A DNA stretch of 43,345 nucleotides from a virus (taxonomy: Duplodnaviria; Caudoviricetes): positions 1 through 43,345 of the IMG/VR virus record IMGVR_UViG_3300009678_000085; one strand, written 5' to 3'. The position numbers were made by a program, and so were the translations under genes. Below the pieces are notes generated by a model. That model had not been told where the DNA came from. It saw only the letters and a program-made list of their open reading frames with translations, and made no database searches. Within the stretch, counting starts at the first letter, position 1, and every line of letters starts with the position of its first letter. Shown piece after piece: positions 1 to 43,266 of the stretch.

Positions 1-14
1 AGCCCGGCCTAGGG
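1..14. repeat. Terminal direct repeat, left copy (AGCCCGGCCTAGGG)
   Basis: Identical to 43332..43345. Confidence 0.9.
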
Positions 15-22
15 GTGGGACA

Positions 23-51
23 TTGACTAATTTTATACTTGACGATAGCTT
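23..51 (+). promoter_or_regulatory. Putative sigma70-type promoter TTGACT-N17-TAGCTT
   Basis: -35 at 23..28, -10 at 46..51. The -10 is overlapped by the inverted repeat CGATAGCTT-N6-AAGCTATCG (43..66). Confidence 0.5.
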
Positions 52-163
52 GCTCGAAAGCTATCGCGAAAGCTTTCCCGCAAGGTACTTATGCTTGACA
101 GGTTACACCGAGTAACAGAGGAGAGCCGCGCCGCATATTTTGCAGTTGACGAGAGAGAGAGGC

Positions 164-177
164 GGGCAACCTTGCCC
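164..177. promoter_or_regulatory. Palindromic site 1 GGGCAACCTTGCCC
   Basis: Exact GGGCAA-NN-TTGCCC in the left non-coding end. Confidence 0.85.
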
Positions 178-220
178 ACTACAGGTAGCGCGCACAGGCA
201 TGCTCGACCACTACAGGTAG
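176..220 (+). repeat. 13-bp direct repeat CCACTACAGGTAG x2
   Basis: Copies at 176..188 and 208..220. Confidence 0.7.
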
Positions 221-479
221 TGTGTGAGAAAAAAGCGCTCTCCCAGCAAATAATGCTTGCACAGTACCGTGGTTCTGATAGAATGCCTATTGTGAGTTGA
301 AGTTGATTGAAGGAAATAGCGCGCGTGTCGCGCACAGGGATTGAAGCCCACGTAAAGACAACGCTACAGGCGTCTGGGCCAGTCTCGCTTGAAAACTGAA
401 TAGGTTCGAATCGGACGCATCTACGGTTGCGTCCGGAGTCAAGCTCGATAGTGGTTTGCGTGTCGCGGCCCCTACGTAC

Positions 480-493
480 GGGCAACCTTGCCC
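480..493. promoter_or_regulatory. Palindromic site 2 GGGCAACCTTGCCC
   Basis: Ends 22 nt upstream of the ParB-like gene ATG at 516. Confidence 0.85.
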
Positions 494-515
494 GTCAACC
501 TCAGAGGTTACGACA

Positions 516-1574
516 ATGGCAGACACAAATACAGCAAAAGGCACCATGATTGATCCGGCGTTCTCGAAGACGACCGACTTGGAAGGCGAGGCGGGCGGAA
601 TCGCGCGGGTCAAGGCGGCATATGAGGCAATCGAGCCCCTGTGTCACCCCATGACCTTGATCGTGCCGCGCGCGTCCTACATCGAACTGGACGCGATCGT
701 GGAGGGCATCAAGCTCCACGGGTACGACCCGTCGGAAGCGATCTTGGTGGACGGCCCTCAGATTCTGGATGGCCGGACCCGCTCCGTGGCGATGTACCTC
801 ATCCACGGAGACAAGTGGTGGACGTTGATTCCGCACCGTCAGGCTACCCGCGAAGAGCGGGCGGATGTCCTGACGGTGGTCCTGCGAAAGAACTTCGCTC
901 GCAGGAACCTTGATCCGGACGCGCGAGCACTGGTCGCGGCACGGATGCTGGTAGGCGAGATTCCGTGCGAAATTCCGGGCGATGCGCCGGAAGGCGGAAG
1001 GCTCCGCGAGAAGATCGCGAACCTCTGCTCTGTGAAGGAGCGATCGGTGGAGTCAGCGAAGAAAGGCCTGCAGCTCCTGCGATATCAGGAGGTCAACCGG
1101 CCGAAAGATCCGGCGTTGGCGAAGGAGGTCGACGACCTCCGGTACGCGGTGCTTCACTCGGAGGTTGCTCCGAATGCTCTGAAGATCCGGGCGGATTCGC
1201 TGAAGACGGGCAAGGTTCACCAGCCCGCTAGGCGTGTCCAGTCGAACACCGAGACGACAGTCGACGGTGCGAAGGCGAACCCGTACGCCGACATTCCGGG
1301 CATGACGCCGGAAGTCGCAGCGGACCGGATGCAAAAGATCAGTCAGGCAATGCGGAAGGCGCTCGAAGGCGTGGAGCCTGACAAGCGCAAAGGATTCCTG
1401 ACCTTGATCGCGAAATTCGCGATTCAGGACGCGATTCGGAACGCGGATCTTCTGGACGCGACTGCGAAGGCGACAAAGCTGGACGCGGATGCCGCGAAGG
1501 CGAAGGCAGCGGTTGAAGCGGCCGCGAAGGCAGCAGCAGCGCCTGCGAAGTCTCGGAAGGCGAAGGCAGCATAA
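516..1574 (+). CDS. ParB/Srx-like N-terminal domain + HTH protein with Ala/Lys-rich tail (ParB-like 1)
   Basis: IKLHGY..ILDGRTR..KNFARRNL motif set; HTH-like LREKIANLCSVKERSVESAKK; C-terminal AKAKAA..KSRKAKAA. Start placed at ATG 516 after GAGGT. Confidence 0.8.
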   Translation: MADTNTAKGTMIDPAFSKTTDLEGEAGGIARVKAAYEAIEPLCHPMTLIVPRASYIELDAIVEGIKLHGYDPSEAILVDGPQILDGRTRSVAMYLIHGDKWWTLIPHRQATREERADVLTVVLRKNFARRNLDPDARALVAARMLVGEIPCEIPGDAPEGGRLREKIANLCSVKERSVESAKKGLQLLRYQEVNRPKDPALAKEVDDLRYAVLHSEVAPNALKIRADSLKTGKVHQPARRVQSNTETTVDGAKANPYADIPGMTPEVAADRMQKISQAMRKALEGVEPDKRKGFLTLIAKFAIQDAIRNADLLDATAKATKLDADAAKAKAAVEAAAKAAAAPAKSRKAKAA

Positions 1575-1639
1575 AGCGATCTAGACCCGGCCACGACACG
1601 GCTAACCACTATCAAGCTTGACTCCCTGCTAACCCCGAC

Positions 1640-1653
1640 GGGCAACATTGCCC
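1640..1653. promoter_or_regulatory. Palindromic site 3 GGGCAACATTGCCC
   Basis: Extends to GACGGGCAA-CA-TTGCCCGTC; just upstream of GGAGG RBS. Confidence 0.85.
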
Positions 1654-1675
1654 GTCCCTAACCGGAGGATGAGAA

Positions 1676-1843
1676 ATGCGGGTTTGTAAATTCCACCCGA
1701 AGGCGACTCCTGCACCATGGTTTGGATCATGCCACGTCAGGATCGGACGCCGGTTCTACACGGCGATTCGACTAGTCGGCCCTTGGCACCTAGTGCGGCC
1801 CTTGCGCTACTCCCTGCAGGACGTGCGCTTCCGCGACGAGTAG
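1676..1843 (+). CDS. Small hypothetical protein (55 aa, MRVCKFHPK...)
   Basis: GGAGG 7 nt upstream; fills the gap; below the ORF-track cutoff. Confidence 0.55.
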   Translation: MRVCKFHPKATPAPWFGSCHVRIGRRFYTAIRLVGPWHLVRPLRYSLQDVRFRDE

Positions 1844-1849
1844 ACAACC

Positions 1850-1881
1850 CCGAAGGCCTGGAGGAGACTCCGGGCCTTCGG
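1850..1881 (+). terminator. 14-bp stem with GAGA tetraloop (terminator or processing hairpin)
   Basis: CCGAAGGCCTGGAG-GAGA-CTCCGGGCCTTCGG; weak U-tail. Confidence 0.5.
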
Positions 1882-1910
1882 TGCGTTCTATTTCGAGCGC
1901 GCGACCTCGC

Positions 1911-1924
1911 GGGCAAACTTGCCC
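1911..1924. promoter_or_regulatory. Palindromic site 4 GGGCAAACTTGCCC
   Basis: Directly before RBS GGAAGGAGG of the gene at 1942. Confidence 0.85.
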
Positions 1925-1941
1925 GTGGAAGGAGGAGAGAG

Positions 1942-2142
1942 ATGGACAGGGGCGGCCCGCTCCATGAGAGAGTGGGCGAACTAGAGGATGAGAGAGTGCT
2001 CCTGCTGGAGCGCATCAACGAGCTGGAGGGCTTCTGCCGCAAGCTCTACTCCTATCTGGAGGGGAGAGATGCGAGCTGGGTCGTTCATAACCACCTTGGT
2101 CAGGACAACCCCTTCGGCGACGAAGAGATGGAGATGATCTAG
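1942..2142 (+). CDS. Hypothetical coiled-coil protein
   Basis: Strong RBS; C-terminal part of ORF 1717..2142. Confidence 0.65.
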   Translation: MDRGGPLHERVGELEDERVLLLERINELEGFCRKLYSYLEGRDASWVVHNHLGQDNPFGDEEMEMI

Positions 2143-2161
2143 GTTGGAAGCCTATTCCTTC

Positions 2162-2305
2162 ATGCTCAACCTGCTACCCGTGTTCCACCTTGCTCGGAAT
2201 AGAGGGCTCCTGAAGGAGCTACTCGCCGAGCAAGGTGTGACCGGGTACAAAGAGGGACTCCTGAAGAGAAACAACTTCAGGTACACCCCAGAGGATTTAG
2301 ACTGA
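2162..2305 (+). CDS. Small hypothetical protein (47 aa)
   Basis: Open frame MLNLLPVFHL...; TGATG overlap with the next gene. Confidence 0.45.
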   Translation: MLNLLPVFHLARNRGLLKELLAEQGVTGYKEGLLKRNNFRYTPEDLD

Positions 2306-2505
2306 TGGCCAGTGGTCTAGTGATAGATGAGAAGCTCTTGGTCCGGTGTCTGAACCGAGCAAGGCGCGCAAAGGTGCTGCTCGAGACTGAGGGCTCACTG
2401 AGTAAGTGCCTGCTCGCGGTGGACAAGGCGGAAAGTCACGTCGTAGAGATCGTGAGAGAGCTGGAGACGGCACTAGGAATCCACCGCACCCCAAAGGACT
2501 GCTGA
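2305..2505 (+). CDS. Hypothetical protein
   Basis: GAGG upstream; operon packing. Confidence 0.6.
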   Translation: MASGLVIDEKLLVRCLNRARRAKVLLETEGSLSKCLLAVDKAESHVVEIVRELETALGIHRTPKDC

Positions 2506-2507
2506 GG

Positions 2508-2693
2508 ATGAGACAGCTATCCTTCGAAGAGTGGCTAGGCCAGGTCAACCGCGCACTGGGCGAGCTGACGAGCGGCATGGTCACGAGCATTGACGAACTG
2601 ATCGGTGACTTGCCCTACTACAACTTCTGGTGCAAGCACGCCAACCCCACAACGGTAGCGCGGAAGGCACTGAAGGAGGCACGGAGCATCTAG
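2508..2693 (+). CDS. Hypothetical phage protein (MRQLSFEEWLGQV...)
   Basis: ATG at 2508 right after the previous stop. Confidence 0.65.
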   Translation: MRQLSFEEWLGQVNRALGELTSGMVTSIDELIGDLPYYNFWCKHANPTTVARKALKEARSI

Positions 2694-2706
2694 CAACAAG
2701 GGGCGC

Positions 2707-2720
2707 GGGCAAGTTAGCCC
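2707..2720. promoter_or_regulatory. Palindromic site 5 (1 mismatch) GGGCAAGTTAGCCC
   Basis: Core of hairpin GGGGCGCGGGC..GCCCGCGCCCC (2700..2727), upstream of GGAGG. Confidence 0.75.
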
Positions 2721-2742
2721 GCGCCCCCTAACCATTCGGAGG

Positions 2743-2988
2743 ATGAGCATGGACAGGCTGCTGTCCTACCTGGGGGATGTCGGATTCGGCATCCTCCTCT
2801 TTCTTGCGCTCAGTGCAATAGGGATGGTGATGCTACTGGGCGTATACCTGCTGACCTTTGTCAGCACCGCGCGTGTTTCCGCCCCACATGACGAGGCACA
2901 AGAGAACCGCGCTTTACTTCAGACTGAGAGGAGAGAGAGTGGCCCCGAAGGAGAGAGAGCCGAGAGAGAGAGTCACCGACTTCATTAA
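2743..2988 (+). CDS. Putative membrane protein
   Basis: Hydrophobic segment GFGILLFLALSAIGMVMLLGVYLLTFV; GGAGG RBS. Confidence 0.55.
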   Translation: MSMDRLLSYLGDVGFGILLFLALSAIGMVMLLGVYLLTFVSTARVSAPHDEAQENRALLQTERRESGPEGERAERESHRLH

Positions 2989-3136
2989 CAAGGTGCCCGA
3001 GCTGGAAAAGATCCTCGATCGCCTGGCCGAACTCGAAGAAGAGTTCATGGAGTTTGATCGCAAGCTGAAGCAGTATATGAGGGATCTCGACATTACGTTC
3101 GACCGGCTCAAAAGAGAGAAGGAAGAGGACTGGTGA
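2888..3136 (+). CDS. Hypothetical coiled-coil protein
   Basis: Charged helical C-terminus; overlaps the next start; start uncertain. Confidence 0.55.
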   Translation: MTRHKRTALYFRLRGERVAPKEREPRERVTDFINKVPELEKILDRLAELEEEFMEFDRKLKQYMRDLDITFDRLKREKEEDW

Positions 3137-3342
3137 TGCCCTCTTTCGAGAACACCGACCCGAAGGTACGTGAGCTTGCGCGTCTGCTTGGTGAGGATTG
3201 CGAGCCGGGCAACTACTTCATCATGCTTGCCCTGAGAAGCACCGACGGTGGATCGCTAGTCTTCGTCCCCGACGCCTCGCCCAGAGAAGCTGTCCGTGTG
3301 CTACGTACGATGGCGGATAGCATCGAAGAGAGAGAGAACTAG
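3136..3342 (+). CDS. Hypothetical protein
   Basis: TGATG coupling. Confidence 0.65.
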   Translation: MPSFENTDPKVRELARLLGEDCEPGNYFIMLALRSTDGGSLVFVPDASPREAVRVLRTMADSIEEREN

Positions 3343-3364
3343 GCTGAAAGGAGGTGAGGAATAG

Positions 3365-3556
3365 ATGTCGCTAATCACCATCATCATCTACTTGATGCTG
3401 ATTGGCCTCCTGCTGTGGATCATCACCACATTCGTGCCGATGGAGCCTGTTATCCGCAATGTGATGATCGCAGTCGTGCTGGTAGTGATCGTTCTCTGGC
3501 TGCTGCAGATGGTAGGGGGGCCACTGGCCAATGTCCGCATCGGCAGTAGTCCATAA
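3365..3556 (+). CDS. Two-TM small membrane protein, Thivi_2564-family-like
   Basis: MSLITIII..IGLLLWII..VPM..VVIVLWLLQ..RIG pattern; strong RBS AAGGAGGTGA. Confidence 0.75.
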   Translation: MSLITIIIYLMLIGLLLWIITTFVPMEPVIRNVMIAVVLVVIVLWLLQMVGGPLANVRIGSSP

Positions 3557-3708
3557 CCTACTGTTCGTTCCTCTCTCAGCAATTAGAGATGACTTCACCC
3601 CCGAGATGGCGCTAGCACTAGACGCTCTTGCCTTGGAGCTAGCCATCGGGGGGTGTATAGGGGGTGGGCTATTTGGAACTAAACTTCTGACGTGGAAAGG
3701 AGAGAGAG

Positions 3709-3882
3709 ATGCCGAGGATTCCCACAACTCCGGGTAGCAACTACCCAGGCCGACAGTACCCTGGGCCACCGCCGACTGCTGTCGGTACTCGACCGAAGAC
3801 AGGGGCAAAGCGCCCTGCTCCTAAGGTGACAGGTGGCAAGCCGATGCGACCGAAGCCACCCTTTGCTGGCAGGGGGCGTTAG
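3709..3882 (+). CDS. Small basic Pro/Gly-rich protein (57 aa)
   Basis: AAGGAG RBS; MPRIPTTPG...FAGRGR. Confidence 0.65.
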   Translation: MPRIPTTPGSNYPGRQYPGPPPTAVGTRPKTGAKRPAPKVTGGKPMRPKPPFAGRGR

Positions 3883-4050
3883 ATGCCAAAGGGCAATCCA
3901 TTCAGCAAGGCAGCGAAGCGGGTATCGAGCGGGATCAAAGAAGGGCTCAAGCCCAATGTCTTCCAGGCTGCAGCAAAGAAGGCTGCGAGTGGAATGAAGG
4001 AAGGGTTCTCTAAGCCCAGCAGGACCAAGCTCGCCAAGAGGAAGTATTAG
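3883..4050 (+). CDS. Small Lys/Ala-rich protein (55 aa)
   Basis: Abuts the previous stop (TAG-ATG); MPKGNPFSKAAKR...KLAKRKY. Confidence 0.65.
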   Translation: MPKGNPFSKAAKRVSSGIKEGLKPNVFQAAAKKAASGMKEGFSKPSRTKLAKRKY

Positions 4051-4224
4051 ATGCCACGGGCACCAAAGGCAGGAGGTGGGGGGTACATCATCAAGAGTGC
4101 GCCTGTCCGAGGCGCTGGTGGTGGTGGGATCAAGAAGGTCCGGCGTCCGGGTGACCCTGGGATGCCGCCTCCAATGGGGAGAGGCAGGCCACGGCCTCCT
4201 ACTCCTGTAGGGAGGGGACGCTAG
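4051..4224 (+). CDS. Small Arg/Gly/Pro-rich protein (57 aa)
   Basis: TAG-ATG abutment; MPRAPKAGGGG...GRGRPRPPTPVGRGR. Confidence 0.6.
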   Translation: MPRAPKAGGGGYIIKSAPVRGAGGGGIKKVRRPGDPGMPPPMGRGRPRPPTPVGRGR

Positions 4225-4238
4225 GCAAACTCTAGGGG

Positions 4239-4371
4239 GCCGAACAGGCAGCGGTCGCTCGCTGCAGTGCGACGTTTACTTGTAGCTCTCGGTGACTCAT
4301 CCCACCGGGAGCTACTCGTATCCAGCGCGGGAGTAGTTCGGCATGGTCGGAGAAGGTGGGTACGCCGACCA
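4239..4371 (+). ncRNA. Candidate structured non-coding RNA
   Basis: Several nested complementary segments, one with a G-U pair (see findings). Confidence 0.3.
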
Positions 4372-4390: not shown

Positions 4391-4404
4391 GGGCAAGTTT
4401 GCCC
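4391..4404. promoter_or_regulatory. Palindromic site 6 GGGCAAGTTTGCCC
   Basis: Immediately followed by AGGAGG RBS and ATG 4415. Confidence 0.85.
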
Positions 4405-4934: not shown

Positions 4935-4937
4935 CAG

Positions 4938-5540: not shown

Positions 5541-5554
5541 GGGCAAGTTTGCCC
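5541..5554. promoter_or_regulatory. Palindromic site 7 GGGCAAGTTTGCCC
   Basis: Centre of inverted repeat GGTAGCCGGGCAA-GT-TTGCCCGGCTACC (5534..5561); intergenic. Confidence 0.85.
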
Positions 5555-6120: not shown

Positions 6121-7017
6121 ATGAAGGCAGCAGCAGTACATCATGCTCTGCAATCAGCAGGGTACTTCCCCCGCCGAGAGGAGACGCTAGCTATCTCGGG
6201 GGTGCTGGCTGCGCCTAAGAACACAGGCGCGAGAGCCATGCTCATCGAGGGACCGCCGGGATGCGGTAAGACCTACCTCGCTGAGTGCTGGGCTAAGGCA
6301 ACAGGAGCTACGTACATCTATGGACTACTCCATGCGTGGTCCGGGGAGGACGATCTATTCCAAGGAATTGACGTTGCGTCAGCGGTGGCTGGAGACGCAA
6401 GTGCAGTACGACAGCCGGGGCTTCTGCATCTTGCCGCGATGGCGGCACAAGATGGCCAGGCGATCGTATGCCTGGATGAGATCGACAAGACTGCAGAGAG
6501 GGCAGAGAACCTTCTACTCGACTGGCTCCAGACGGGTCGGGTTCCAATTGCACCCGGAGTCCACATCACGACCCGCCTCGAACGGATCATCGTCTTCGTC
6601 ACGTCGAACGGCGTACGTCCGCTAGGCGAGCCTCTCCTACGTAGGCTCCGCCGTGTGGTGATGGAGCCGCATGACGTAGAGACGGTTGCCAATCTGGTAC
6701 GTGCAGCCACCGACGTACCTCTCGGTGTGTGCAGGCAGGTAGTCAGTGTCTGCACGGCAGCAGCCAAAGCTTTCGAGGGCAACCAGGCTCTCTCTCCACA
6801 GGAGATGGCGAGGGCAGCAGCCGAGATCTACCACAACGCAGAGTCAATCGAAGACGTGCGTACCATGATCGCACGATGGGCACTGAGAGCGAAGGAGATC
6901 TCTCAGGGGTACAGCAAGAACAAGCCAGAAAGTTCAGACAAGAACGTCTGGACCGAAGTCTGTAGGCACAGGCAGCAGGAAGCACGGGCAAGTTTGCCCG
7001 CTTCCGAAGTAGCCTAG
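6121..7017 (+). CDS. MoxR-like AAA+ ATPase
   Basis: Walker A GPPGCGKT, Walker B VCLDEIDK, sensor VTSN, Arg finger LLRRL. Confidence 0.85.
   Translation: MKAAAVHHALQSAGYFPRREETLAISGVLAAPKNTGARAMLIEGPPGCGKTYLAECWAKATGATYIYGLLHAWSGEDDLFQGIDVASAVAGDASAVRQPGLLHLAAMAAQDGQAIVCLDEIDKTAERAENLLLDWLQTGRVPIAPGVHITTRLERIIVFVTSNGVRPLGEPLLRRLRRVVMEPHDVETVANLVRAATDVPLGVCRQVVSVCTAAAKAFEGNQALSPQEMARAAAEIYHNAESIEDVRTMIARWALRAKEISQGYSKNKPESSDKNVWTEVCRHRQQEARASLPASEVA
6986..6999. promoter_or_regulatory. Palindromic site 8 GGGCAAGTTTGCCC
   Basis: In the 3' end of the AAA gene (RASLP), upstream of the vWA RBS. Confidence 0.85.
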
Positions 7018-9138: not shown

Positions 9139-9331
9139 ACTGCAAGTAAGAATCCAAGAGGAAACGTACCAGAGGCTGAAGGTGATTGCCTTCCGAGATG
9201 GTCACATGAGTGTAGCCCGTGTGGTCAATGAGATGATAGAGGAAAGGTTAGGCAACGAAGGCTACAGGAATCTGGATGCTGACCCAGAGCCGGGCGAATT
9301 TGCCCGCGACGAGGAGAAGGAGAAGCGATGA
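9128..9331 (+). CDS. Ribbon-helix-helix (Arc/CopG-like) DNA-binding protein
   Basis: ALQVRIQEETYQRLKVIA..HMSVARVVNEMIEERL. Confidence 0.7.
   Translation: MKHALQVRIQEETYQRLKVIAFRDGHMSVARVVNEMIEERLGNEGYRNLDADPEPGEFARDEEKEKR
9292..9305. promoter_or_regulatory. Palindromic site 9 (1 mismatch) GGGCGAATTTGCCC
   Basis: Upstream of the RBS of the SSB-like gene. Confidence 0.7.
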
Positions 9332-10689: not shown

Positions 10690-11448
10690 ATGGGACGTAC
10701 ATACGCCGAGGCTATCGAGGGACTAAAGACATTCAACATCCACCCGGCAGCAGAGCTGTTCCCGGTGCTGAACGAGAAGGAGATCGCCGAGCTAGCTGTG
10801 TCCATCTCGGAGCATGGACTACGAGACAAGGTAGTCATCATGCCTACTGGCGAGATCCTCGATGGGAGGAATCGCATCCTTGCCCACTACATCCTGGGCT
10901 GTGAGAGCGAGCTTACCTACGAGGAGTTCACCGGGGACGATCCGTACCAGTACGTCTACGACAAGAACATTCTGCGCCGCCACCTGAAGACGAACGTGAA
11001 GGCTGCCATCGCCGCCGAGATGCTGCCGATGATCCGGGCCGATCTGGAGGCGAAGAAGATAGCTGGAGAGGTCGACTCCCACGTTCGCGCACGAGACATT
11101 GCAGCGGACATCATGGGAGTTGGTGGACGTACCGTCGGTGTAGCCGAAGAGGTGATGCTCAAAGCACCCGACCTACACGAGGAGGTGAAGGCAGGGAATC
11201 TCTCTGTCAACGCAGCACTTGAGAAGACCAAGGAAAGAAGCGATCTAACCAATGGCATACGTATCTCCAAGGAGGAGAGAACAACAGAGGGGCTGGTGGC
11301 TAAGTTCAACAAGTTCTTCGAGCAGGCATTCGATCAGTGGCCAGACTCCGTACCCATGCTGATGCTGGCTACGCAGATGTCCGTTGCGGTGGCACGGTGC
11401 GATGACCGTGACAGGGTTCTAGAGGAGGCGAAGAGGGAAGAAGCGTGA
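10690..11448 (+). CDS. ParB/Srx-like N-terminal domain + HTH protein (ParB-like 2)
   Basis: IHPAAELFP..SISEHGLRDKV..EILDGRNR..KNILRRHL; HTH RARDIAADIMGVGGRTV. Confidence 0.85.
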   Translation: MGRTYAEAIEGLKTFNIHPAAELFPVLNEKEIAELAVSISEHGLRDKVVIMPTGEILDGRNRILAHYILGCESELTYEEFTGDDPYQYVYDKNILRRHLKTNVKAAIAAEMLPMIRADLEAKKIAGEVDSHVRARDIAADIMGVGGRTVGVAEEVMLKAPDLHEEVKAGNLSVNAALEKTKERSDLTNGIRISKEERTTEGLVAKFNKFFEQAFDQWPDSVPMLMLATQMSVAVARCDDRDRVLEEAKREEA

Positions 11449-11927: not shown

Positions 11928-12024
11928 ACGGTGCCGCCGGGCGCAGCGCAGTTAACTCGGCCGCCGCCCAGTGCGCCGGGCAAACTTGCCCACGGATGGT
12001 CCGTGGACCCGGCGGCACCGTCCA
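11928..12024 (+). other. Multi-branched intergenic fold closed by a perfect 14-bp stem
   Basis: ACGGTGCCGCCGGG (11928..11941) is complementary to 12008..12021; internal hairpins. Confidence 0.6.
11978..11991. promoter_or_regulatory. Palindromic site 10 GGGCAAACTTGCCC
   Basis: Intergenic, inside the folded element. Confidence 0.85.
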
Positions 12025-13657: not shown

Positions 13658-16600
13658 GCATAGGCGTCACTGCGCTCGACGTTGGAAAGGCCAGAGCCGA
13701 CCCGCGTAGGAGCGCCTCCTCTGGATGATTGAAAGACGCCTCCTTCGCTGTTGCCATCAGCGGCGAGAACGGACTAGAAGTAAAGCTATTAGCGAACTCG
13801 CTCACCCCCGCCTTCGCTCCCTCCCATGCCCGTCCTGGGAACGTGGATTCATCAGGTGCATTCTTGAATCCACGCATCGCTTCAACCCCTGCCGACATAG
13901 GAGCAGCCGCTGCTCCGAACGTTCCCTCAAACGCCTGCTTGCTCAGATTCATCCCCATCTCTACCGGGCCTACCGTCTTCTGATCCGACTCCGGCCCAAA
14001 GATGTTCGTGTTGCGGAGAATCTTGCCCGACACGATCGAGCGGAGAATCGCTGCCTCGTACGAGGCAGTGGTCTGGTAGACCGTAGCCCTGGCCAGGAAG
14101 GTAGCTCCAAGCTTCTGGAGTTCCTTGTCTCCACTGGTCAGGAGGTTCTTGATGTTCGCGTCCCAGGTAGAGGGCTGGCGTAGAGCATACGTCTGCCACT
14201 GGAGGCCGAGCATCCTCGGAATAGTCATCTGCGTACCAGGCGATACCTCGCCCGGTGCGTTGAAATACTGCGTATTCCTGACGAAGGACTTGTGTGTCTT
14301 CGTCATGTCATTCTCGCTAAACACACCCCGCCTAGACGCTAGGTCGCTCGGGTCCCATCCGAGTAGCTTAGCCTGCCAAGCTGCTGCCGAGCTGTTAAGG
14401 AGATCGACGTTGTTCGCCATCTCCTTCGACAAGGAAATCGCAGCCGCCACGGACCCCCAGGAATCCCTGGAGCGGAGCCGTGAATTCTCCACCCATTCGA
14501 GCGCCCTGAATCCCCACGTCTCCCGGCCTGCGCCAGAGGCCAGGAACTCTCGCGTCATGCCTGTAGTCAAGGCCCCAGACCCCTCGATGACCTCTCGGGG
14601 GGTCTTTCCTATGTGGGGGATGACTTCGTTCCGATCGTACTCTAGCTGACCGAGCTTGGCCCAATCGTCTCCAAGGAAAATGTGGATCATCTTCCTCTGA
14701 CCGAAGTTAGAGAAAGCAGAGAGGCCAAGGGCTACATCGGAAGTTAGCCCCTGCACCACTCTCGCTAGCTGCATCAGAGTCTCAGGATCATTTCGGTCAA
14801 GAAGATGCTTGGTCGTCCCCTCAAACATGGAGTAGACAGCCTTCCCCTTGGCTCCCTCTTCCTTCCGACGCTCAAGCATGCGCTCTGCGTCATCAGCTAG
14901 CCCCTCGGGCAAATCTGGGTGCGCCTTGAACAACGGCGTATCGGATTTGAGCTGTGTCACCCGGCGACTATCCCACCCGAAGTGATGACCTAGGGAAGTC
15001 TCCTCTGCGAGGCGACGCCCGTGGATAGCCAGGATTCCTTCTGGGTCTACGCTGGCAGGAGAGCTACCGAGAATCTGCCCTACCTGCCTGGAACGTGGGA
15101 AGTCGGGAAGGAAGTCCAGCATCCCCTTCCGTGGACCGCCGTCGTACGGAGCCGGACCAACCCTGGGGAGGTACTTCTTGTACCCGGCCTCGGGGAGTCC
15201 GACCTCTAGCTCGTTCAGCTTACGCAGCTTCCCCGTGACTGCATCCGTCTTCAGTTGGACTAGCCGGTTCGGGCTGTCCAGCGGATCGCCGACCGAACGC
15301 TGGACCCTACCATCCAGAGACTGCAGATCCTCGATCTCATCCTGAATCGCCTCGAAAATCGTCTTCGTATCCTGATCTACGTCTCCTTCACGTATCTTGT
15401 CGCGGGCAAGTTTGCCCTCGGGGCTATCGTAGATCGCCTCGGCAATCAGGGGGCGATCTTGCGGATGCAGTCTCTGCATCAGAGCCTTCACCCGCGTAGA
15501 GAACCGTGCCTCGTTCTGGAAGACATCCCCGCTGTTGTCCATCAGCTTGGTGACCAGGCCCTCCTCTCCGAACCTGGCCATAGCCTGCGGATTACGCACC
15601 AGCCCACCGAAGATACGAGTAGCCGGATAACCAAACTTGCTGTCTATCGTCTCGAACAAGCCAGGGCGGGTACGCAGTGGGTACGATCCAGAGCTAGTGA
15701 CTGTATAGACAGGAGAGCCATCTGGATTCGTCAGCTTACCCTGGGCAACCAGGGGGATAGCCCCTGACCCAGGGCCTGGCGCTGTTACGCTAGCCGGTGC
15801 CTCTGCCACTGGTGCTTCGTTCTTCTGTGCCCAGGGAAAGAGAAGCTTTCCCGCTCTCTCTGTAGCCTCGGGCGTATCTACCGGCTCGTCATAGGGATTC
15901 GGCTTCCGATCGAATCGGAACCACTGCTTCTCGGATGGCGGAACTTCAGTGGAGGCGGCGGGAGGAGTTACCTCGGCAGGCGGAGGGGAAGAAGTGCCTC
16001 CGCTAGTAGCGCCAAGCGTACCCCCTCCCGCGTTTCCTCTGTCGTATCTGAAAGGATCAAGGATGTCAGAGAAACCCTGCTGCCCACCAGGGCCTGCTAG
16101 CCCTGTCTTCGGTGGCTGGCGCGGTGGCTCAGAGTCTGTCTTCGGCGGCTGACGTACATTTTCAGCAAAGGACTGCAGCTCGTCCCGGTCCTTCGGTACC
16201 CACGGGTTCGCGGTCTGTGTATCTGTCCGCCTGATCCCAGGAGGGGTATTGACCCTCTCCGGTGGGATGACCGGCAAGTTCCTAGACGGTACGTCTCCTG
16301 CCCTACCTTGGCTGACAGAATAGAGGGGCCTGCCGCGTCGGTTCCGTACGAACGCTTCTGCCTCACCGAACCGCTTGAAGGTACCGAGATTCAGTTCGCT
16401 GTCAGAATACTGCCCAGGCTCACCACCGGGTCGAGTAACGTAGTACCCATCCGATCCTTTGGTAATATTGTAGTCGTCCATGGAGAAGTCCCCATGGAGA
16501 CGCCTCCCCTTCGACTCGTCTGGTGCCCACGTCTCTTGGATGTTGCTGACCGGAGCGTCTGGATCTCCCTGGTACCGGTAGGGGTTGTCCGGGTCGATGG

Positions 16601-17585
16601 TTGAGTACGGTGCGTTCGGATCACCCTCGAATCGCTCGATCGCAGAGGGCCGCCCACGTAGCTCATCCGGGGGGCGGAACTCTGTCGTGACCGTAGGCTT
16701 GTACTCGATCCTGAGCTGGTTCTGGCGCTCTGGCTTCGGATAGTCCATCAGGACATCCTCGGCCAGGTTTACCACAGGAGGGGGAGGAGGAGGCTCAGGG
16801 GCAGCAGGGGGCGGAGGGGCTGCAGCCGCTGCGTCACGGGCAGCCTTCTGCCCTAGGATGTCCTGGGCTAGGGCTACGGCGTCTGCTTCCTTCTGCGCCT
16901 TGAACTGGGCTGCCTTCGTGTTGATGACGTTCGACGCTACCCCGCCAGGGGCAGAGAAGACTCCACCAAGCGCACCAGTTACGGCCGTTCCGTACGGATC
17001 GAATTCGTTCCCTCGGAGCCAGTCGGCAACAGTCTTGATACCGGCTGTAGCAGCAGCTCCTGCCCCAGAGTGACGGAGGATGTTCTTGGCTAGCCCTACA
17101 ACCGGACGCCTTGTGAGTGCGCTCTGGAGGATGGCCGGGAGGGAGCCGTAGGCTGCGTACTCGGTTCCGTGGCTGAGGTCCGTTTCTGGAGCATCGAATC
17201 CAGCATTACGCTGTGCCCAATCGGCCGTGAGTCCAGAAACCGCTCCAGCAATAGTTCCACCAATAATGCCTGATCCTGGGAGGACAAAATTAAGAGCTGC
17301 TGGCCCCGCCATAGCTGCAGCTTTTCCAAACGCTTCGCCTTCTCCGAAATCGTAGTAACCAGCGGCAGGCCCTTCGTGCTCATACTCGCTACCTTGTGGG
17401 TTATCCAACCTGTCGTAGGTCTTCTGATAGATCGGATCGCGCGTGGGCAAACTTGCCCCGCCCTCTCTCAGTCGAGCCCGCTGGCTCGGGGTCATGGCCG
17501 ATGTGTCGACAGCCCCTTCTGCTGGGGCTGTCTCTACTACCTGCTGCCCCTGGGCAGCCCTGTATCGCTCAGAAGGGGTGCTCAT
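13608..17585 (-). CDS. Large internal virion / DNA ejection protein (1325 aa)
   Basis: Last and largest gene of the structural arm; Gly/Ala-rich N-terminal segments, Pro-rich linker, helical C-terminus. Confidence 0.65.
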   Translation of the reverse strand: MSTPSERYRAAQGQQVVETAPAEGAVDTSAMTPSQRARLREGGASLPTRDPIYQKTYDRLDNPQGSEYEHEGPAAGYYDFGEGEAFGKAAAMAGPAALNFVLPGSGIIGGTIAGAVSGLTADWAQRNAGFDAPETDLSHGTEYAAYGSLPAILQSALTRRPVVGLAKNILRHSGAGAAATAGIKTVADWLRGNEFDPYGTAVTGALGGVFSAPGGVASNVINTKAAQFKAQKEADAVALAQDILGQKAARDAAAAAPPPPAAPEPPPPPPVVNLAEDVLMDYPKPERQNQLRIEYKPTVTTEFRPPDELRGRPSAIERFEGDPNAPYSTIDPDNPYRYQGDPDAPVSNIQETWAPDESKGRRLHGDFSMDDYNITKGSDGYYVTRPGGEPGQYSDSELNLGTFKRFGEAEAFVRNRRGRPLYSVSQGRAGDVPSRNLPVIPPERVNTPPGIRRTDTQTANPWVPKDRDELQSFAENVRQPPKTDSEPPRQPPKTGLAGPGGQQGFSDILDPFRYDRGNAGGGTLGATSGGTSSPPPAEVTPPAASTEVPPSEKQWFRFDRKPNPYDEPVDTPEATERAGKLLFPWAQKNEAPVAEAPASVTAPGPGSGAIPLVAQGKLTNPDGSPVYTVTSSGSYPLRTRPGLFETIDSKFGYPATRIFGGLVRNPQAMARFGEEGLVTKLMDNSGDVFQNEARFSTRVKALMQRLHPQDRPLIAEAIYDSPEGKLARDKIREGDVDQDTKTIFEAIQDEIEDLQSLDGRVQRSVGDPLDSPNRLVQLKTDAVTGKLRKLNELEVGLPEAGYKKYLPRVGPAPYDGGPRKGMLDFLPDFPRSRQVGQILGSSPASVDPEGILAIHGRRLAEETSLGHHFGWDSRRVTQLKSDTPLFKAHPDLPEGLADDAERMLERRKEEGAKGKAVYSMFEGTTKHLLDRNDPETLMQLARVVQGLTSDVALGLSAFSNFGQRKMIHIFLGDDWAKLGQLEYDRNEVIPHIGKTPREVIEGSGALTTGMTREFLASGAGRETWGFRALEWVENSRLRSRDSWGSVAAAISLSKEMANNVDLLNSSAAAWQAKLLGWDPSDLASRRGVFSENDMTKTHKSFVRNTQYFNAPGEVSPGTQMTIPRMLGLQWQTYALRQPSTWDANIKNLLTSGDKELQKLGATFLARATVYQTTASYEAAILRSIVSGKILRNTNIFGPESDQKTVGPVEMGMNLSKQAFEGTFGAAAAPMSAGVEAMRGFKNAPDESTFPGRAWEGAKAGVSEFANSFTSSPFSPLMATAKEASFNHPEEALLRGSALAFPTSSAVTPMLTEWARKRRLATSEAP
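15404..15417. promoter_or_regulatory. Palindromic site 11 GGGCAAGTTTGCCC
   Basis: Intragenic (EGKLAR). Confidence 0.8.
17445..17458. promoter_or_regulatory. Palindromic site 12 GGGCAAACTTGCCC
   Basis: Intragenic (GASLP). Confidence 0.8.
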
Positions 17586-22408: not shown

Positions 22409-22422
22409 GGGCAAACTTGCCC
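22409..22422. promoter_or_regulatory. Palindromic site 13 GGGCAAACTTGCCC
   Basis: Fills the 29-nt intergenic gap, adjacent to the - strand GGAG RBS. Confidence 0.85.
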
Positions 22423-27894: not shown

Positions 27895-28012
27895 TCATTC
27901 CACCCGTGGGCAAGTTTGCCCGTGATCTACCTCTGCCCTGGTAGTACGAGCGCATGAAGCGATCTGCTAGCAGCCGACGCTTCCGCTCCGCAGCTTCAGC
28001 ATCGAGATCCAC
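27809..28012 (-). CDS. Possible small hypothetical protein
   Basis: GTG abuts the upstream stop, but the ORF overlaps the adaptor start by 86 nt. Confidence 0.35.
   Translation of the reverse strand: MDLDAEAAERKRRLLADRFMRSYYQGRGRSRANLPTGGMSGGPPNPQRGNHLERRPDGRAVGRVDAR
27908..27921. promoter_or_regulatory. Palindromic site 14 GGGCAAGTTTGCCC
   Basis: 13 nt upstream of the adaptor start. Confidence 0.85.
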
Positions 28013-29985: not shown

Positions 29986-30687
29986 TTACGCCGCGTTGTA
30001 CAAGCTGCCGCGACGCTTCGCCACGTTTCCTTGCATCAGCTCATACCGCTCTCTCCGCATCTCTTCGTCCGTCTTGAACTGGGCAGCACTCTGTGGACCG
30101 TCCCGGTACGCCCCCGGCACTGGAGACGCCTGCCCACGCATCTGACGCTCAACGTACTTCTTCTCTTCCTCGACCCGCCGCGCCGTCTCCCACTTCCAGT
30201 CCCGCGTCCACTGGACCGCCTGGTTGATGCGCTGCTCGTTCGTCCAGTGCCGCGCCTCTGGATGCTGGTTTAGGTGATCCATGTAGCCAGAGAGCTTGTC
30301 CTCGAAACCCTGGAGATCAGGGTTCTGGTTCATCACCGTTCGAGCGTAGTTCCGAGCTTCGAGGTCTTGCGCTGTCTGCTTCAGCCGAACGTCGAACTCC
30401 TGCCTCAGCTCCTCGGCGGCTTCCTTCTTCGCAAGCTCCTTGGTCTTCCTAAACGCCTCGATAGGGTCTTCGGCGAAGTCAGCGAAAAAACGCTCTCGGA
30501 CTCGTTCCTTATCTCCGGGGTCGGGGGACTTGGGGGCGGGCGTGGGCAAACTTGCCCGTGCCTTTTCAGCCTCTGCAATACGCTGTTCCAGAATCTGCTG
30601 ATTGCGGACGATGACTTGGTTCCCACGGAGGATTTCCTGAATCATCTCCTCTGCGGAAGGCGTCGGATTAGACTGCTGCGCGGACAT
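29986..30687 (-). CDS. Putative scaffolding protein
   Basis: Charged helical protein just upstream of the MCP; FFADFAEDP. Confidence 0.65.
   Translation of the reverse strand: MSAQQSNPTPSAEEMIQEILRGNQVIVRNQQILEQRIAEAEKARASLPTPAPKSPDPGDKERVRERFFADFAEDPIEAFRKTKELAKKEAAEELRQEFDVRLKQTAQDLEARNYARTVMNQNPDLQGFEDKLSGYMDHLNQHPEARHWTNEQRINQAVQWTRDWKWETARRVEEEKKYVERQMRGQASPVPGAYRDGPQSAAQFKTDEEMRRERYELMQGNVAKRRGSLYNAA
30544..30557. promoter_or_regulatory. Palindromic site 15 GGGCAAACTTGCCC
   Basis: Intragenic (RASLP). Confidence 0.8.
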
Positions 30688-32106: not shown

Positions 32107-34081
32107 TGACATTCCCCACCTGAATCCAGTCACCAATAGACGCCATAAAGAGCAGAGTGATCGAATCACAACGATCAAGATCAATCGTTGCTGCACTGAG
32201 CTGGGTATTGGAATCATCAGCAAACGTGATGGTCTGTGCTGCTGTCTCGTCGATGTTCACAATATACAGCAGTTGCCCGTCCGCACCATCGGTGATGGCT
32301 GTAGCACCACTATCAATAGGATCAGTAGTCGCGGTAACCTGCACGATCGTAGCACTAGGCGTTATCGTAAATTCATCTGCGAGAGCCTGTGTAATAGGTG
32401 GGTAGGCTTCAGAACCAGCATTACGAACACCCACCGTCGTAGCCGGTGTAGATCCCCTAGTCGGACGCTGAACATCAACACCAAACTGATTCGTAATCTG
32501 TGGAGTACCATTGATCGCCGGGTCCATGGCAAAAAATCCACGAAATGAAGTTATGTTCAGTTGTCCTGCTGTCTCAGTAAATATCGGATTGGCCACAAAG
32601 CTAGATGGAGCGGTTATGGCAAAGATGCCGCCAGCATCCGTATTGCGGTATATGGTATTATCCTCGAACGGCTTAGACAGGGACATTGTTCCTGTCCCTG
32701 ATGTCGCCGAATAATCGACGGTAATACCAGATCGAAAAACAGCCGGAGTCGGGGGTACCTTGGCGGCCGCCGTTGCAGTCAGCAACGCCGTGGCGTTGAA
32801 CAGTGACCAAGAGGACGCCTGGGTGCCAGCACCTGATACCGTGAACGTTCCGCCGCCTTCAACACCTGTGTAGGTGTTGATGATGACGCCCGAAGCATCG
32901 TCGTAATTGTAAGTGGGAGCGATACTGAGCCCACGCACGATGGAGGTTCCACCAGCTATCCCGGTGACAGATATGGTCGGGTCCCACTTCCCACCGACCG
33001 CCACGCTGCTGTCTACTGGATCAACGATCCCATCTGACCATTCCCACTCTGTCGCGAGCCCGAAGTAAATGGTGCCCTTCGTAGGGTTGGATGTACTCTC
33101 CAGTACGAGAAGCTCACCTGACGCCGTTCCACCATAAAGGATCTGTCCACCCGCACCTGTACGACCCGCAAGGAGCGCGTACTGGGTATGGTCGTCAGCA
33201 GTTAGGCCCGTCAGGCTTGCATGTGGACGAGTGCCTATCTGGGTGATGTCGGTAAGCGTAAGAGTGTCTGGAATTTGCGCATCCGTAGCCGACCCCGAAA
33301 TATCCGTAAACGCTGGCTGCGAACAATCGAGCACGAAGTCAGCATCAATTCCCTTCGCCCATCTACTGGCCGTGCAATCTGACGCAACTGCAGGCATCAG
33401 CGTCGCTTCAAGCTCGCCTGTCCCAAAGAAGCCAGTCGCAGAGTCGCCTGTCATAGCAACGACAGCCGAGCCTGCCGTGGTGACGGTGATGCTGTTTGGC
33501 ACGTCGGCATCGGTAAGCAGCACGTCGACCCAGTTGGTGCCGTTGAACTGCAAGAAGTCGCCGCTCGCTGCCGTGGCGGTCGAGACATCGGTTAGATCGT
33601 CGAGCGCACCGCCACCACCTCCAGTAAGATCGGTGTCGTCGATCCAGTTGGTGCCGTTGTACTTCAACACCGCTCCGGTTGCTGGAGAAGTGATAATAAC
33701 GTCGCTCAGGTCATCCAGTAGATTTGGGATGACCATACCACCACTGTCGCACTGCATCTGATTGAACGAATCAATCACCAGTCTGTCGTCAGGGTCTATA
33801 CAGGAGCCAACGGTGGGGTAGACAGCGGTCGCGTCGTCGAAGAAGAACTCCACCCGGTCTGGAACGGTGAGCAGGGTTCCTACCCCACCACCGTTCTGCA
33901 GGTCGACGATCAGCCCTGTCGTCGGGCTACCGACATCAACCGTGAACGTGTTGATCTCGTTCGTGCTGGACGGATCTCCCCCTCCGCCTCCACCGCCCCC
34001 TCCACCCTGGTAGCCAGAGGCGTGGGCAAAATTGCCCGCGAAGATGAGCAGGAGAAAGAGAGCTAGACTTCCTGGCCCCAC
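32093..34081 (-). CDS. Tail fibre/spike-like protein with signal-peptide-like N-terminus
   Basis: Two LDDL.DV...L.(Y/F)NGTNW repeats, HASLTGLTADDHTQY motif, Gly10 run. Confidence 0.7.
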   Translation of the reverse strand: MGPGSLALFLLLIFAGNFAHASGYQGGGGGGGGGGDPSSTNEINTFTVDVGSPTTGLIVDLQNGGGVGTLLTVPDRVEFFFDDATAVYPTVGSCIDPDDRLVIDSFNQMQCDSGGMVIPNLLDDLSDVIITSPATGAVLKYNGTNWIDDTDLTGGGGGALDDLTDVSTATAASGDFLQFNGTNWVDVLLTDADVPNSITVTTAGSAVVAMTGDSATGFFGTGELEATLMPAVASDCTASRWAKGIDADFVLDCSQPAFTDISGSATDAQIPDTLTLTDITQIGTRPHASLTGLTADDHTQYALLAGRTGAGGQILYGGTASGELLVLESTSNPTKGTIYFGLATEWEWSDGIVDPVDSSVAVGGKWDPTISVTGIAGGTSIVRGLSIAPTYNYDDASGVIINTYTGVEGGGTFTVSGAGTQASSWSLFNATALLTATAAAKVPPTPAVFRSGITVDYSATSGTGTMSLSKPFEDNTIYRNTDAGGIFAITAPSSFVANPIFTETAGQLNITSFRGFFAMDPAINGTPQITNQFGVDVQRPTRGSTPATTVGVRNAGSEAYPPITQALADEFTITPSATIVQVTATTDPIDSGATAITDGADGQLLYIVNIDETAAQTITFADDSNTQLSAATIDLDRCDSITLLFMASIGDWIQVGNVNALC
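34024..34037. promoter_or_regulatory. Palindromic site 16 GGGCAAAATTGCCC
   Basis: Intragenic (AGNFAH). Confidence 0.8.
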
Positions 34082-36925: not shown

Positions 36926-37263
36926 CCGGTATAACCTCTACGCAAGGCTGCCTCTAGCGGTCCGAGGTTGCCAGGGGGCGGGGCTCGGAGGGGCTGGTGC
37001 TCCTCTGGAGCGATCCTAGACCCTGCGGGCAAACTTGCCCGTGGTTGCTCTGCAACTGGGGTAGGCTGAATCATCGGTACTGTGTTTCCTAGTACCTTGG
37101 CTACTGCTAAGCCTATCTCAACAGCCTGATCCAAATTAAAGGTTTGCTGGTGAACCTTGAATAAGCCGTGCCGCTCGGCCAGATCCCTGACCTTCTCCGG
37201 GTTATTCACGATGTCGCGGAGAAACGCAACCTCGGCCTGTAGGTTCTCGAAAGCCTGAATCAC
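36922..37263 (-). CDS. Hypothetical protein
   Basis: GTG start overlaps the nuclease TGA (GTGA). Confidence 0.55.
   Translation of the reverse strand: MIQAFENLQAEVAFLRDIVNNPEKVRDLAERHGLFKVHQQTFNLDQAVEIGLAVAKVLGNTVPMIQPTPVAEQPRASLPAGSRIAPEEHQPLRAPPPGNLGPLEAALRRGYTG
37027..37040. promoter_or_regulatory. Palindromic site 17 GGGCAAACTTGCCC
   Basis: Intragenic (RASLP), about 100 nt upstream of the portal start. Confidence 0.8.
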
Positions 37264-39204: not shown

Positions 39205-39432
39205 TTACCTGTTCGCTAGGGCAATTCTTGTAGGAGGAAGCACTACTGACTCCTCTTTGAAGTTGAGCCCCAGGTCTGCCATCAGCTTGATTAGGTCAAC
39301 GCTAATGCTCTTGCCGGTAAGAACGAGGATTAGCACACCTAGAGCCGTTTTGATAGCCAGGATGTCCTTCTCTGGAATCTGGGCAAGTTTGCCCGGTGTC
39401 TCCTCAAGTTTTTCTGGTGTCTCAGAAGACAT
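39205..39432 (-). CDS. Small hypothetical protein, first gene of the late arm
   Basis: AAGGAGGT RBS; abuts terL. Confidence 0.6.
   Translation of the reverse strand: MSSETPEKLEETPGKLAQIPEKDILAIKTALGVLILVLTGKSISVDLIKLMADLGLNFKEESVVLPPTRIALANR
39381..39394. promoter_or_regulatory. Palindromic site 18 GGGCAAGTTTGCCC
   Basis: Intragenic (PGKLAQ), beside the early/late divergence. Confidence 0.8.
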
Positions 39433-42052: not shown

Positions 42053-42310
42053 ATGGGTGATCTAGTCTTTCTGCCTACGGCAAAAAAAAGTAAAGACAAA
42101 GTAGTAGTGCTGAAGAACGATAGATGGGTCTTCCTATGCAACGAAGGTCATGAGCATCTCCTAAACACTGATACTCTGTTGCAGATGATCGAGACGGGCA
42201 AATTTGCCCTCGTTCCTTCCTGTGTGATACGTCGTATACTTACCGAATGGGGTTGCTGTAAGTCCGTTGGTTGCGTAGAACACGCCATAGAAGAGGTGTT
42301 GGAGAAGTGA
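42053..42310 (+). CDS. Cys-containing hypothetical protein
   Basis: 85 aa ORF; coupled to the next gene. Confidence 0.6.
   Translation: MGDLVFLPTAKKSKDKVVVLKNDRWVFLCNEGHEHLLNTDTLLQMIETGKFALVPSCVIRRILTEWGCCKSVGCVEHAIEEVLEK
42196..42209. promoter_or_regulatory. Palindromic site 19 GGGCAAATTTGCCC
   Basis: Perfect palindrome, intragenic (TGKFAL). Confidence 0.8.
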
Positions 42311-43230: not shown

Positions 43231-43266
43231 AGGACTGGGGGCAAACTTGCCCCTGGTCCTTTTTTA
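43231..43266 (+). terminator. Intrinsic terminator whose stem is palindromic site 20 (43239..43252)
   Basis: AGGACTGGGGGCAA-AC-TTGCCCCTGGTCCT-TTTTT. Confidence 0.8.

Follow-up and report, generated by a model that had tools for sequence, protein, structure and literature searches.

The window, a stretch of 43,345 nt that comprises one whole contig of a tailed phage (IMG/VR record IMGVR_UViG_3300009678_000085), contains 20 copies of the palindrome GGGCAA-NN-TTGCCC. These sites are real, fixed in sequence and distributed across the entire genome. A gene flanked by several of these copies, here termed gp1 (516–1574), encodes a ParB-like protein. The 20 palindromes are read, with moderate confidence, as the binding sites of gp1, which would then be a KorB- or stoperator-like genome-wide regulator and not a partition protein.

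Eighteen of the copies are exact and two carry one mismatch, compared with a mean of 0.10 and a maximum of 2 in 100 shuffles. The flanks lengthen the 14-letter word to 18 bp, RY-GGGCAA-NN-TTGCCC-RY. All four sites that the initial annotation had placed around gp1 (164, 480, 1640 and 1911) are exact copies, and both of its distances are right: the copy at 480–493 ends 22 nt 5' of the ATG at 516, and the one at 1640 starts 65 nt past the stop codon at 1574. Spacing between sites averages 2.2 kb with a largest gap of 5.5 kb and is more even than random (coefficient of variation 0.66, P 0.035). In a genome that is 93.6% coding and 6.4% non-coding, 10 of the 20 sites are intergenic and 10 lie inside open reading frames (ORFs); once ORF 4343 is restarted at 4415, nine in-ORF sites fall in two reading frames. 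In the early arm (positions 1–13600), a ribosome-binding site (RBS) and the first codon of an ORF with at least 50 aa follow within about 35 nt of seven of the ten sites, a location shared by 6.4% of positions (P 5e-7). Many palindromic operators across a replicon, some of them at gene starts, is also the pattern that marks the KorB type.

The arms of the palindrome are invariant, the 2-bp centre is free, and the centres, read in the direction of transcription, are GT in eight, AC in six and other in six cases. No asymmetric, oriented site of the stoperator type was found among the copies, the palindrome being a symmetric dyad. Invariant arms, a free and unoriented centre and copies in two reading frames together argue for a dimeric protein that reads double-stranded DNA. 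That the sites act instead as hairpins of RNA or single-stranded DNA, for processing, stabilising or terminating transcripts or as hairpin promoters, is regarded as very improbable: among the 40 arms there is no stem-compensating change and the loop has no strand preference, about half of the sites lie within coding sequence, and a T7-like RNA polymerase (PF00940) was not found in the window. Such a role would fit the position of sites at gene junctions before RBSs, the three sites (2707, 5541 and 43239) that form the tops of longer hairpins (+ strand folding energies of −26 to −29 kcal/mol), one of which has a T-run, and another phage, G077, which encodes a T7-like RNA polymerase and carries the same GGCAA-NN-TTGCC core in long hairpins located at gene boundaries.

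The behaviour of the sites in strains of the phage appears to fit a sequence-read protein site of two-fold symmetry. Site 164 shows no change inside it in strain run X11, in which positions 160 and 187 differ (among the 40 of 225 differences listed), and site 1640 is unchanged in X11 and X13 (one study) despite adjoining indels, the ORF that starts 22 nt behind it being replaced in X11. This run skips or replaces 1676–1869, 3129–3342, 3810–3880 and 5267–5501; the first swap begins directly after the ATG behind site 1640, and site and RBS therefore appear as a fixed head for swappable genes. In L126, a 94% identical strain, site 27908 keeps its arms and changes in the centre alone, and site 30544 is the reverse complement of the allele GGGCGAATTTGCCC of site 9292. 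This variant allele is thus seen at three places, 9292 in the window, 1911 in run X18 and 30544 in L126. An interpretation of the change at 30544 as site decay was dropped because the same allele stands at 9292 and in X18. The placement of early-arm sites before RBSs and starts and the retention of sites amid gene swapping are new here. Elsewhere the 14-mer is abundant only in L044/L051, a 100% identical record of the same phage (16 of 64 IMG/VR parts), and a scan for the 16-mer (62 stretches) added solely L261, a local cluster.

Matches in bacterial genomes raise the question of a host element from Acidobacteriota, either a repeat element or a sequence recognised by a host protein, with which the phage would recruit a host factor or titrate it away. 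A search of 185,579 species genomes with the 18-mer consensus gave 28 matches, eight of them in the Acidobacteriota genome G011, where the 14-mer occurs 14 times (reversed control 0) and the variant allele is also present; G012, likewise Acidobacteriota, has three copies of the 14-mer. However, a count across the family of G011 gave 12 copies in G011 and 0–1 in each of 60 further genomes, unlike parS, Noc-binding sites (NBS) or SOS boxes; the dyad thus does not behave as a conserved site of a host protein in that family. Moreover, in G011 and G012 a longer, oriented repeat surrounds the dyad, with GTA(C/A)CGC on its 5' side and a T-rich run on its 3' side, whereas TTTT adjoins only 3 of the 20 phage sites, and a chance match to one repeat family among 185,579 genomes is plausible as a rough estimate. 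A host origin of the palindrome is accordingly considered improbable. The repeat of G011 (L299, L303, L304, L311 and L314–L316) and G012 (L322) is species-limited and intergenic, often right after a stop codon, and is REP-like (repetitive extragenic palindrome) or terminator-like.

With regard to gp1, the ParB/Srx-type domain claimed by the initial annotation is borne out, with ILDGRTR at residues 83–89 and KNFARRNL at residues 125–132, and so is the helix-turn-helix (HTH), both helices of which (Table 1) align with the HTH of Spo0J. Pfam did not find a ParB domain in gp1. A gp1-family profile, built from gp1, 47 of 54 distant homologues and a second ParB-like protein of the phage, matches Spo0J, Noc and ParB over the N-domain and HTH (E 1e-11 to 6e-5). 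The AlphaFold2 model (mean pLDDT 77.7) has Noc, ParB, Spo0J and KorB as its top Foldseek ranks. In VIA, gp1 superimposes on Myxococcus ParB (7bnr) over 81 residues with an rmsd (root-mean-square deviation) of 2.4 and a middling Z of 8.6, and residues 38–242 superimpose on KorB (8qa9) over 152 residues (Z 8.2, rmsd 4.5). A model of two gp1 copies reached an ipSAE of 0.56 compared with 0.00 for the best of three controls; across runs, contacts agree to at least 64%, pLDDT is at least 71, and the interface is formed by the C-terminal domain, residues 256–314. In calibration, 20 of 30 solved homodimers attained this mark, as did 1 of 23 single chains. The homologue alignment is poorly conserved over 256–314 and likeness to solved ParB dimers may have helped the model. 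The predicted complex speaks for a putative gp1 homodimer via 256–314, the position of the C-terminal dimer domain of ParB. The Ala/Lys tail that had been described as resembling histone H1 is present (19 Ala and 8 Lys in the last 37 residues), but most of it is predicted as helix and not as a disordered tail of the H1 kind.

A word-index search returned no close homologue of gp1. The 54 distant ones (E 2e-6 to 9e-4) align mainly over residues 40–185, and among cultured phages only Leptospira phage LE1 gave a match, with no dispersed dyad in 12.4 kb around its gene. The homologues belong to a clade that is widespread in phages, has the consensus HP..FP, DGRNR and N..RRHL, and is often fused to methyltransferases, some homologues bearing MT-A70, Dam or N6_N4 methylase domains. 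gp1 sits on a long branch and its placement in the tree varies with the method; therefore, sisterhood of the two ParB-like genes of the phage is not claimed.

The motif residues of the N-domain differ from those of a canonical ParB clamp. The catalytic residues of Myxococcus ParB are Q52 and E93 (10.1101/2021.05.05.442810). At the position of E93, the general base of Box II, gp1 carries R87, as do 45 of 48 homologues (Arg) and 151 of 159 locus proteins. The QPR box is replaced by HPMTLIVP, and neither the catalytic Gln nor the catalytic Glu is present. Box III (ENxxR) is likewise non-canonical: the Lys noted at its first position is indeed there (K125-N126-F-A-R129), but it is no special change of gp1, given that this position holds Lys in 22 and Glu in 4 of 48 homologues and, among the 159 locus proteins, Leu in 74, Lys in 24 and Glu in 4, with no match in 22. 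gp1 retains a GxxR phosphate motif (G86-R87-T88-R89). G86, R89 and N126, which correspond to G92, R95 and N127 of Myxococcus ParB, are kept, and therefore binding of a nucleotide by gp1 is plausible at the level of sequence; Q52 and E93 are without equivalent (10.1101/2021.05.05.442810). Orphan ParB folds bind cytidine triphosphate (CTP), ATP or GTP, and neither sequence nor models predict which (PMC12704722). Of the proposed CTP-dependent clamp, the ParB fold stands, and CTP is an assumption.

Loading of gp1 at about 20 sites, as initially proposed, is supported insofar as the ParB fold, the HTH and the predicted dimer make gp1 the likeliest reader; the pairing of protein and site is a candidate one. 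Of 60 genes, gp1 alone has as many as four sites less than 500 bp away (P 0.013 if a single gene is chosen), and the three sites nearest to it are the only ones with CC or CA centres. Many early genes have a preceding site, so sites near gp1 are partly expected. This observation would also suit a different assignment, in which a different phage protein uses the palindromes as operators or stoperators and gp1 is just one regulated early gene. Four encoded candidates come into question, the second ParB-like protein (10690–11448), an Arc-like protein (9128–9331), an HTH-like protein (11996–12694, with HTH leads that are sub-threshold only) and an HTH_17 protein (41754–41981). One site lies 4 nt before 11996 and another inside 9128–9331, and in L261, a genome without a gp1-clade gene, the geometry GGGCA-N4-TGCCC occurs as a local operator-like cluster. 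Each of the four has at most one site within 500 bp. In addition, HTH_17 excisionase-type and Arc-type proteins usually act at a single locus, which counts against them, and the second ParB-like gene stands in the replication module, as do its counterparts in the phages G077–G079, near which there are no dyads. A different reader within the phage is rather unlikely.

Several observations weigh against gp1 as the reader. The pairing would rest on positional and comparative evidence from sequence, and the four other DNA-binding candidates are encoded in the same phage. As a genome scan, the cluster of sites at gp1 is non-significant (P 0.07–0.41). Foldseek gave no match to the gp1 model at E ≤ 0.001, and the VIA score for Myxococcus ParB is middling. 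A scan of 1–13600 for the sigma-70 consensus listed one promoter, fewer than in shuffles, and promoter overlap is therefore not shown for most sites. No search returned a close orthologue of gp1 with which co-variation of protein and site might be compared. The expected co-occurrence of the clade with dispersed dyads did not materialise, as one clade locus in each of two sets (of 80 and 77 loci) had dyads at P<1e-8, compared with 3 of 107 control loci; in this survey the best 80 of 543 and the best 80 of 477 candidates were kept, with windows of up to 21 kb, the 107 controls had been chosen because the motif occurs in them once by chance, and the dyad finder scored 1e-46 for the window and 1e-69 for the mycobacteriophage Corndog. 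Homologous phages with the gene and without the palindrome had been named as evidence against the pairing; most phages of the clade are of this kind, and none of their genes is a close gp1 orthologue. G078 and G079, fragments that are 44–46% complete, possess the ParB orthologue and lack both dyads and polymerase.

Relatives by capsid (50–67% identity, same late gene order) have neither the site nor another dispersed dyad nor a clade gene in the fetched stretches of 9 viral and 18 metagenome loci, many of which are short. The same holds for G002, a whole capsid relative with 60% capsid identity and the same late order, which lacks a clade gene and a dispersed dyad. The joint absence of gene and sites in G002 speaks for gp1, but G002 matches no early gene of the window, so that the missing sites do not single out gp1.

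Single parallels for reading the palindromes as gp1 sites are provided by G006, G007 and Corndog. G006 has nine dyads, one of them directly before a ParB-clade gene. The G006 dyad (L229), TCTGTT-NN-AACAGA, stands mostly right before an RBS, and the ParB-clade gene in question is an MT-A70 fusion. G007, one of the 107 motif-picked controls, has a stand-alone ParB-clade gene, whereas 1 of 167 control loci contains the clade. Its second dyad family comprises six identical copies, of which one lies within this gene and another some 220 bp upstream; the 15-mers of this family, TTGCGTTTGACGCAA, lie in one orientation at 4422, 11161, 11925, 13236, 14381 and 35385. The eight long dyads of G007 were set aside as support, as they, together with those of G077, track a T7-like RNA polymerase and not ParB; the presence of the ParB orthologue without dyads and polymerase in G078 and G079 likewise implies that long dyads go with the polymerase. 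In G007 (L226–L228) these eight perfect dyads are found at gene boundaries between 3003 and 39422, and in G077 (L403–L404) four lie at 2972, 12232, 17793 and 31022, T7-like RNA polymerase being present in both; the G077 core is the window core with the same centres. These long dyads, in place of asymmetric promoters of the T7 type, are candidate hairpin promoters. A single site in L263 was rejected as a parallel, lying within codons of its own ParB-clade gene. In L036/L057 (G008), GTAAAT-N5-ATTTAC occurs four times, each before a gene and promoter-like, and a ParB_N gene of another clade is located near the terminase. Dyad matches were also seen in AT-rich control loci resembling large eukaryotic DNA viruses.

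The layout of gp1 also recalls partition proteins, and the palindromes were also weighed as loading sites of the parS kind, by which host ParA or structural maintenance of chromosomes (SMC) proteins would maintain the phage DNA in plasmid style or position it. Besides the ParB layout and the predicted C-terminal dimer, the absence of a detectable tyrosine integrase, an Ala/Lys tail that could bind DNA non-specifically, and phage N15 with its four separate centromere sites IR1–4 (PMC7205306) speak for such a role. Both catalytic residues are absent from gp1, though, and partition would not require the link between sites and translation starts; that early-arm sites precede translation starts favours gene regulation over parS-like positioning. 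The initial annotation had recognised neither a Walker-type ParA nor an integrase, and the searches of the window agree: PF13614 gave no match (control 14 of 14), a deviant Walker box occurs in 0 of 60 ORFs, and PF00589 detected no tyrosine integrase. For serine recombinases, a PHROGs scan of the 60 ORFs listed none, no search having been aimed at this family. The suggestion of plasmid-like maintenance finds no support, as ParA is missing, an (L/F/I)G(K/R)G(L/F/I) ParA-binding motif is also absent, and no plasmid replication gene was recognised among the 60 ORFs. A partition role is scarcely probable.

If gp1 is the reader of the palindromes, the following course may be proposed. gp1 would be made first, from the early control region, and its pair of HTHs would read the dyad. 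Bound at 164 and 480, it would limit its own synthesis, and bound 10–33 nt before early starts it would shut down or time these genes by blocking initiation or elongation. The sites in late genes would let gp1 coat the rest of the genome, at about one site per 2 kb. More tentatively, the N-domain might bind a nucleotide, which need not be CTP, and close on DNA. With equivalents of both catalytic residues absent, a gp1 clamp would be long-lived, because hydrolysis-dead mutants spread further on DNA (10.1101/2021.05.05.442810). In its most far-reaching form, gp1 would be a hydrolysis-dead ParB clamp split from the common methylase-associated clade and the first product of a non-integrating phage. 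Loading at 20 palindromes of its own, which stand before exchangeable early-gene cassettes and across the late genes, it would form a lasting, sliding coat that both times expression and shields the whole genome, a chromatin switch of the KorB kind in a phage without ParA; as a whole, this picture is unlikely.

Table 1. Palindromic sites, ParB-like genes and a promoter-like sequence in the window.
Feature	Position	Strand	Description
Palindrome	164..177		centre CC; non-coding control region, 11 nt past TTGACG hexamer
Promoter-like TTGCAC-16-TAGAAT with upstream TG	257..284	+	between sites 164 and 480; seen by eye, absent from the consensus-scan list
Palindrome	480..493		centre CC; 22 nt before gp1 ATG, adjoins its RBS 5'
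gp1, 352 aa	516..1574	+	N-domain ~38–132, HTH 161–170 and 175–194, linker, predicted C-terminal dimer domain 256–314, Ala/Lys helical tail
Palindrome	1640..1653		centre CA; 65 nt after gp1, 22 nt before ATG 1676
Palindrome	1911..1924		17 nt before ATG 1942; allele GGGCGAATTTGCCC in strain run X18
One-mismatch site	2707..2720		part of a hairpin extended by 7 pairs; upstream of RBS and ATG 2749
Palindrome	4391..4404		10 nt before in-frame ATG 4415 with AGGAGG, the likely true start of ORF 4343–4909
Palindrome, 7 extra pairs	5541..5554		intergenic; followed by RBS and 3-codon ORF; next long ORF 5605
Palindrome	6986..6999		last codons of AAA_5 gene; before RBS of 7033–8523
One-mismatch site GGGCGAATTTGCCC	9292..9305		3' end of Arc-like gene; 22 nt before ATG 9328
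Second ParB-like gene, gp1 clade	10690..11448	+	32% identity over 113 aa; replication module; no site within 500 bp
Palindrome	11978..11991		4 nt before ORF 11996–12694
Palindrome	15404..15417		inside 1325-aa gene
Palindrome	17445..17458		127 nt into 1325-aa gene
Palindrome	22409..22422		intergenic; 12 nt before start of 20456–22396 (−)
Palindrome	27908..27921		intergenic; 13 nt before start of 27175–27894 (−)
Palindrome	30544..30557		inside 29986–30693
Palindrome	34024..34037		44 nt into 32093–34081
Palindrome	37027..37040		inside 36922–37578
Palindrome	39381..39394		inside 39205–39471
Palindrome	42196..42209		inside 42053–42310
Palindrome	43239..43252		top of terminator-like hairpin (−26.1 kcal/mol) with T-run

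The genes recognised in the window are those of a tailed phage and include portal, a major capsid protein of the N4-gp56 type, terminase, primase/helicase and exonuclease; its large phage proteins may be candidate ejected proteins. The contig ends overlap by 14 bp, and therefore the contig is probably a circular assembly whose left end is an arbitrary cut. gp1 does come first on the contig, as had been stated, but the end that it follows is probably this assembly cut. Across the contig junction, site 43239 lies 256 bp before site 164. The record is classed as linear with a CheckV value of 49%, which compares with 44% for a 41.6-kb relative with direct terminal repeats. Runs containing the phage are labelled groundwater, freshwater sediment and soil, and in a single RNA run the match is limited to 37 bases of low identity.

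At positions 6121–8523, an AAA_5 (MoxR-type) ATPase gene precedes one of 496 aa in which a vWA-like DxSxS motif was seen by eye, without a Pfam match; the AAA_5 and vWA pair is also present in G007, and an AAA ATPase in Corndog. The terminase (37260–39204) is seemingly split into an ATPase part (38308–39204), a 111-aa ORF and a nuclease-like part (37260–37991), and relatives likewise carry two terminase parts separately. The AT-rich non-coding stretch at 41364–41750, with short inverted repeats and located after a primase/helicase-like gene, is an origin candidate. Two small, very basic ORFs (3709–4050 and 28013–28318), rich in Arg, Lys and Pro and without a family match, possibly encode DNA-condensing proteins.

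Comparison with known systems identifies KorB with its OB operators as the closest working likeness, whereas membership in parABS and in the canonical CTPase clamps fails for want of ParA and of the catalytic residues. KorB of the IncP-1 plasmid RK2 shares with gp1 an N-domain of the ParB fold, the HTH and the linker, as well as the C-terminal dimer domain, which in gp1 is predicted, and OB is a palindromic operator found at many places (12 according to a reference title), near to and far from genes. KorB differs from gp1 in its OB-stimulated CTPase activity, a Box II of the GERR type, its ParA partner IncC and the KorA clamp lock (PMC11790492). gp1 has DGRTR in Box II, no QPR box and no ParA, and belongs to a phage without a recognised integrase; small putative DNA-binding proteins encoded in the window would be candidates for a clamp-locking co-repressor of the KorA/TrbA type.

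The nearest published phage case is that of the Cluster O mycobacteriophages, which carry more than 30 invariant 17-bp dyads with a preferred, unoriented centre, between and inside genes. The ParB-like gp90 of Corndog is among three candidate binders, and an AAA ATPase is encoded in the same arm. In Cluster O, however, the word is a different one, its authors judged a transcriptional role unlikely, and as of 2015 the reader of the dyad was unassigned (PMC4351075). In the 47.8 kb of Corndog that were fetched there are 30 sites and a ParB gene whose type differs from that of gp1; gp90 looks like a canonical ParB (RAGQRR, ENDQR) and matches the gp1 clade weakly (E 0.004).

Other dispersed phage sites share single features with the palindrome. 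The stoperators of Cluster A also consist of one short word in many copies, but they are asymmetric and are bound by a monomeric immunity repressor in an integrating phage (PMC9283540). In Cluster K, the extended start-associated sequences (ESAS) that accompany the start-associated sequences (SAS) are inverted repeats right before translation starts of non-structural genes; unlike the short perfect dyad of the window, they are longer, imperfect and tied to an oriented 13-mer (PMC3203893). Chromosomal ParB–parS, Noc–NBS and SopB–IR1–4 of N15 have the N-domain and HTH fold of gp1 (10.1101/2021.05.05.442810, PMC7205306), from which the gp1 phage differs by the lack of ParA and by 20 sites tied to gene starts. 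HerB (YfjB) from the leading region of a plasmid is an early orphan ParB-like protein with a CTP-binding domain, an HTH and a new dimerisation module; it binds host chromosomal sites and reprograms the host, whereas the candidate sites of gp1 lie on the genome of the phage itself (PMC13370423).

Although phages commonly encode orphan ParB folds, hardly any of these has an assigned DNA target (PMC12704722). Phage ParB-CTPase folds of this kind are often fused to methyltransferases (PMC12704722), and gp1 falls into such a clade, from which it is set apart by being stand-alone, by its long branch and by a candidate cognate site. In the literature covered, mostly freely accessible main texts, no demonstration was found that an orphan ParB of a phage binds palindromes throughout a genome. 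The 352-aa gp1 and the 18-bp site, with natural strong and variant alleles, make a clean small test pair, and the strain evidence indicates that the site travels with the RBS. If true, gp1 would be a ParB clamp that, without catalytic residues and without ParA, acts as a phage-wide regulator.

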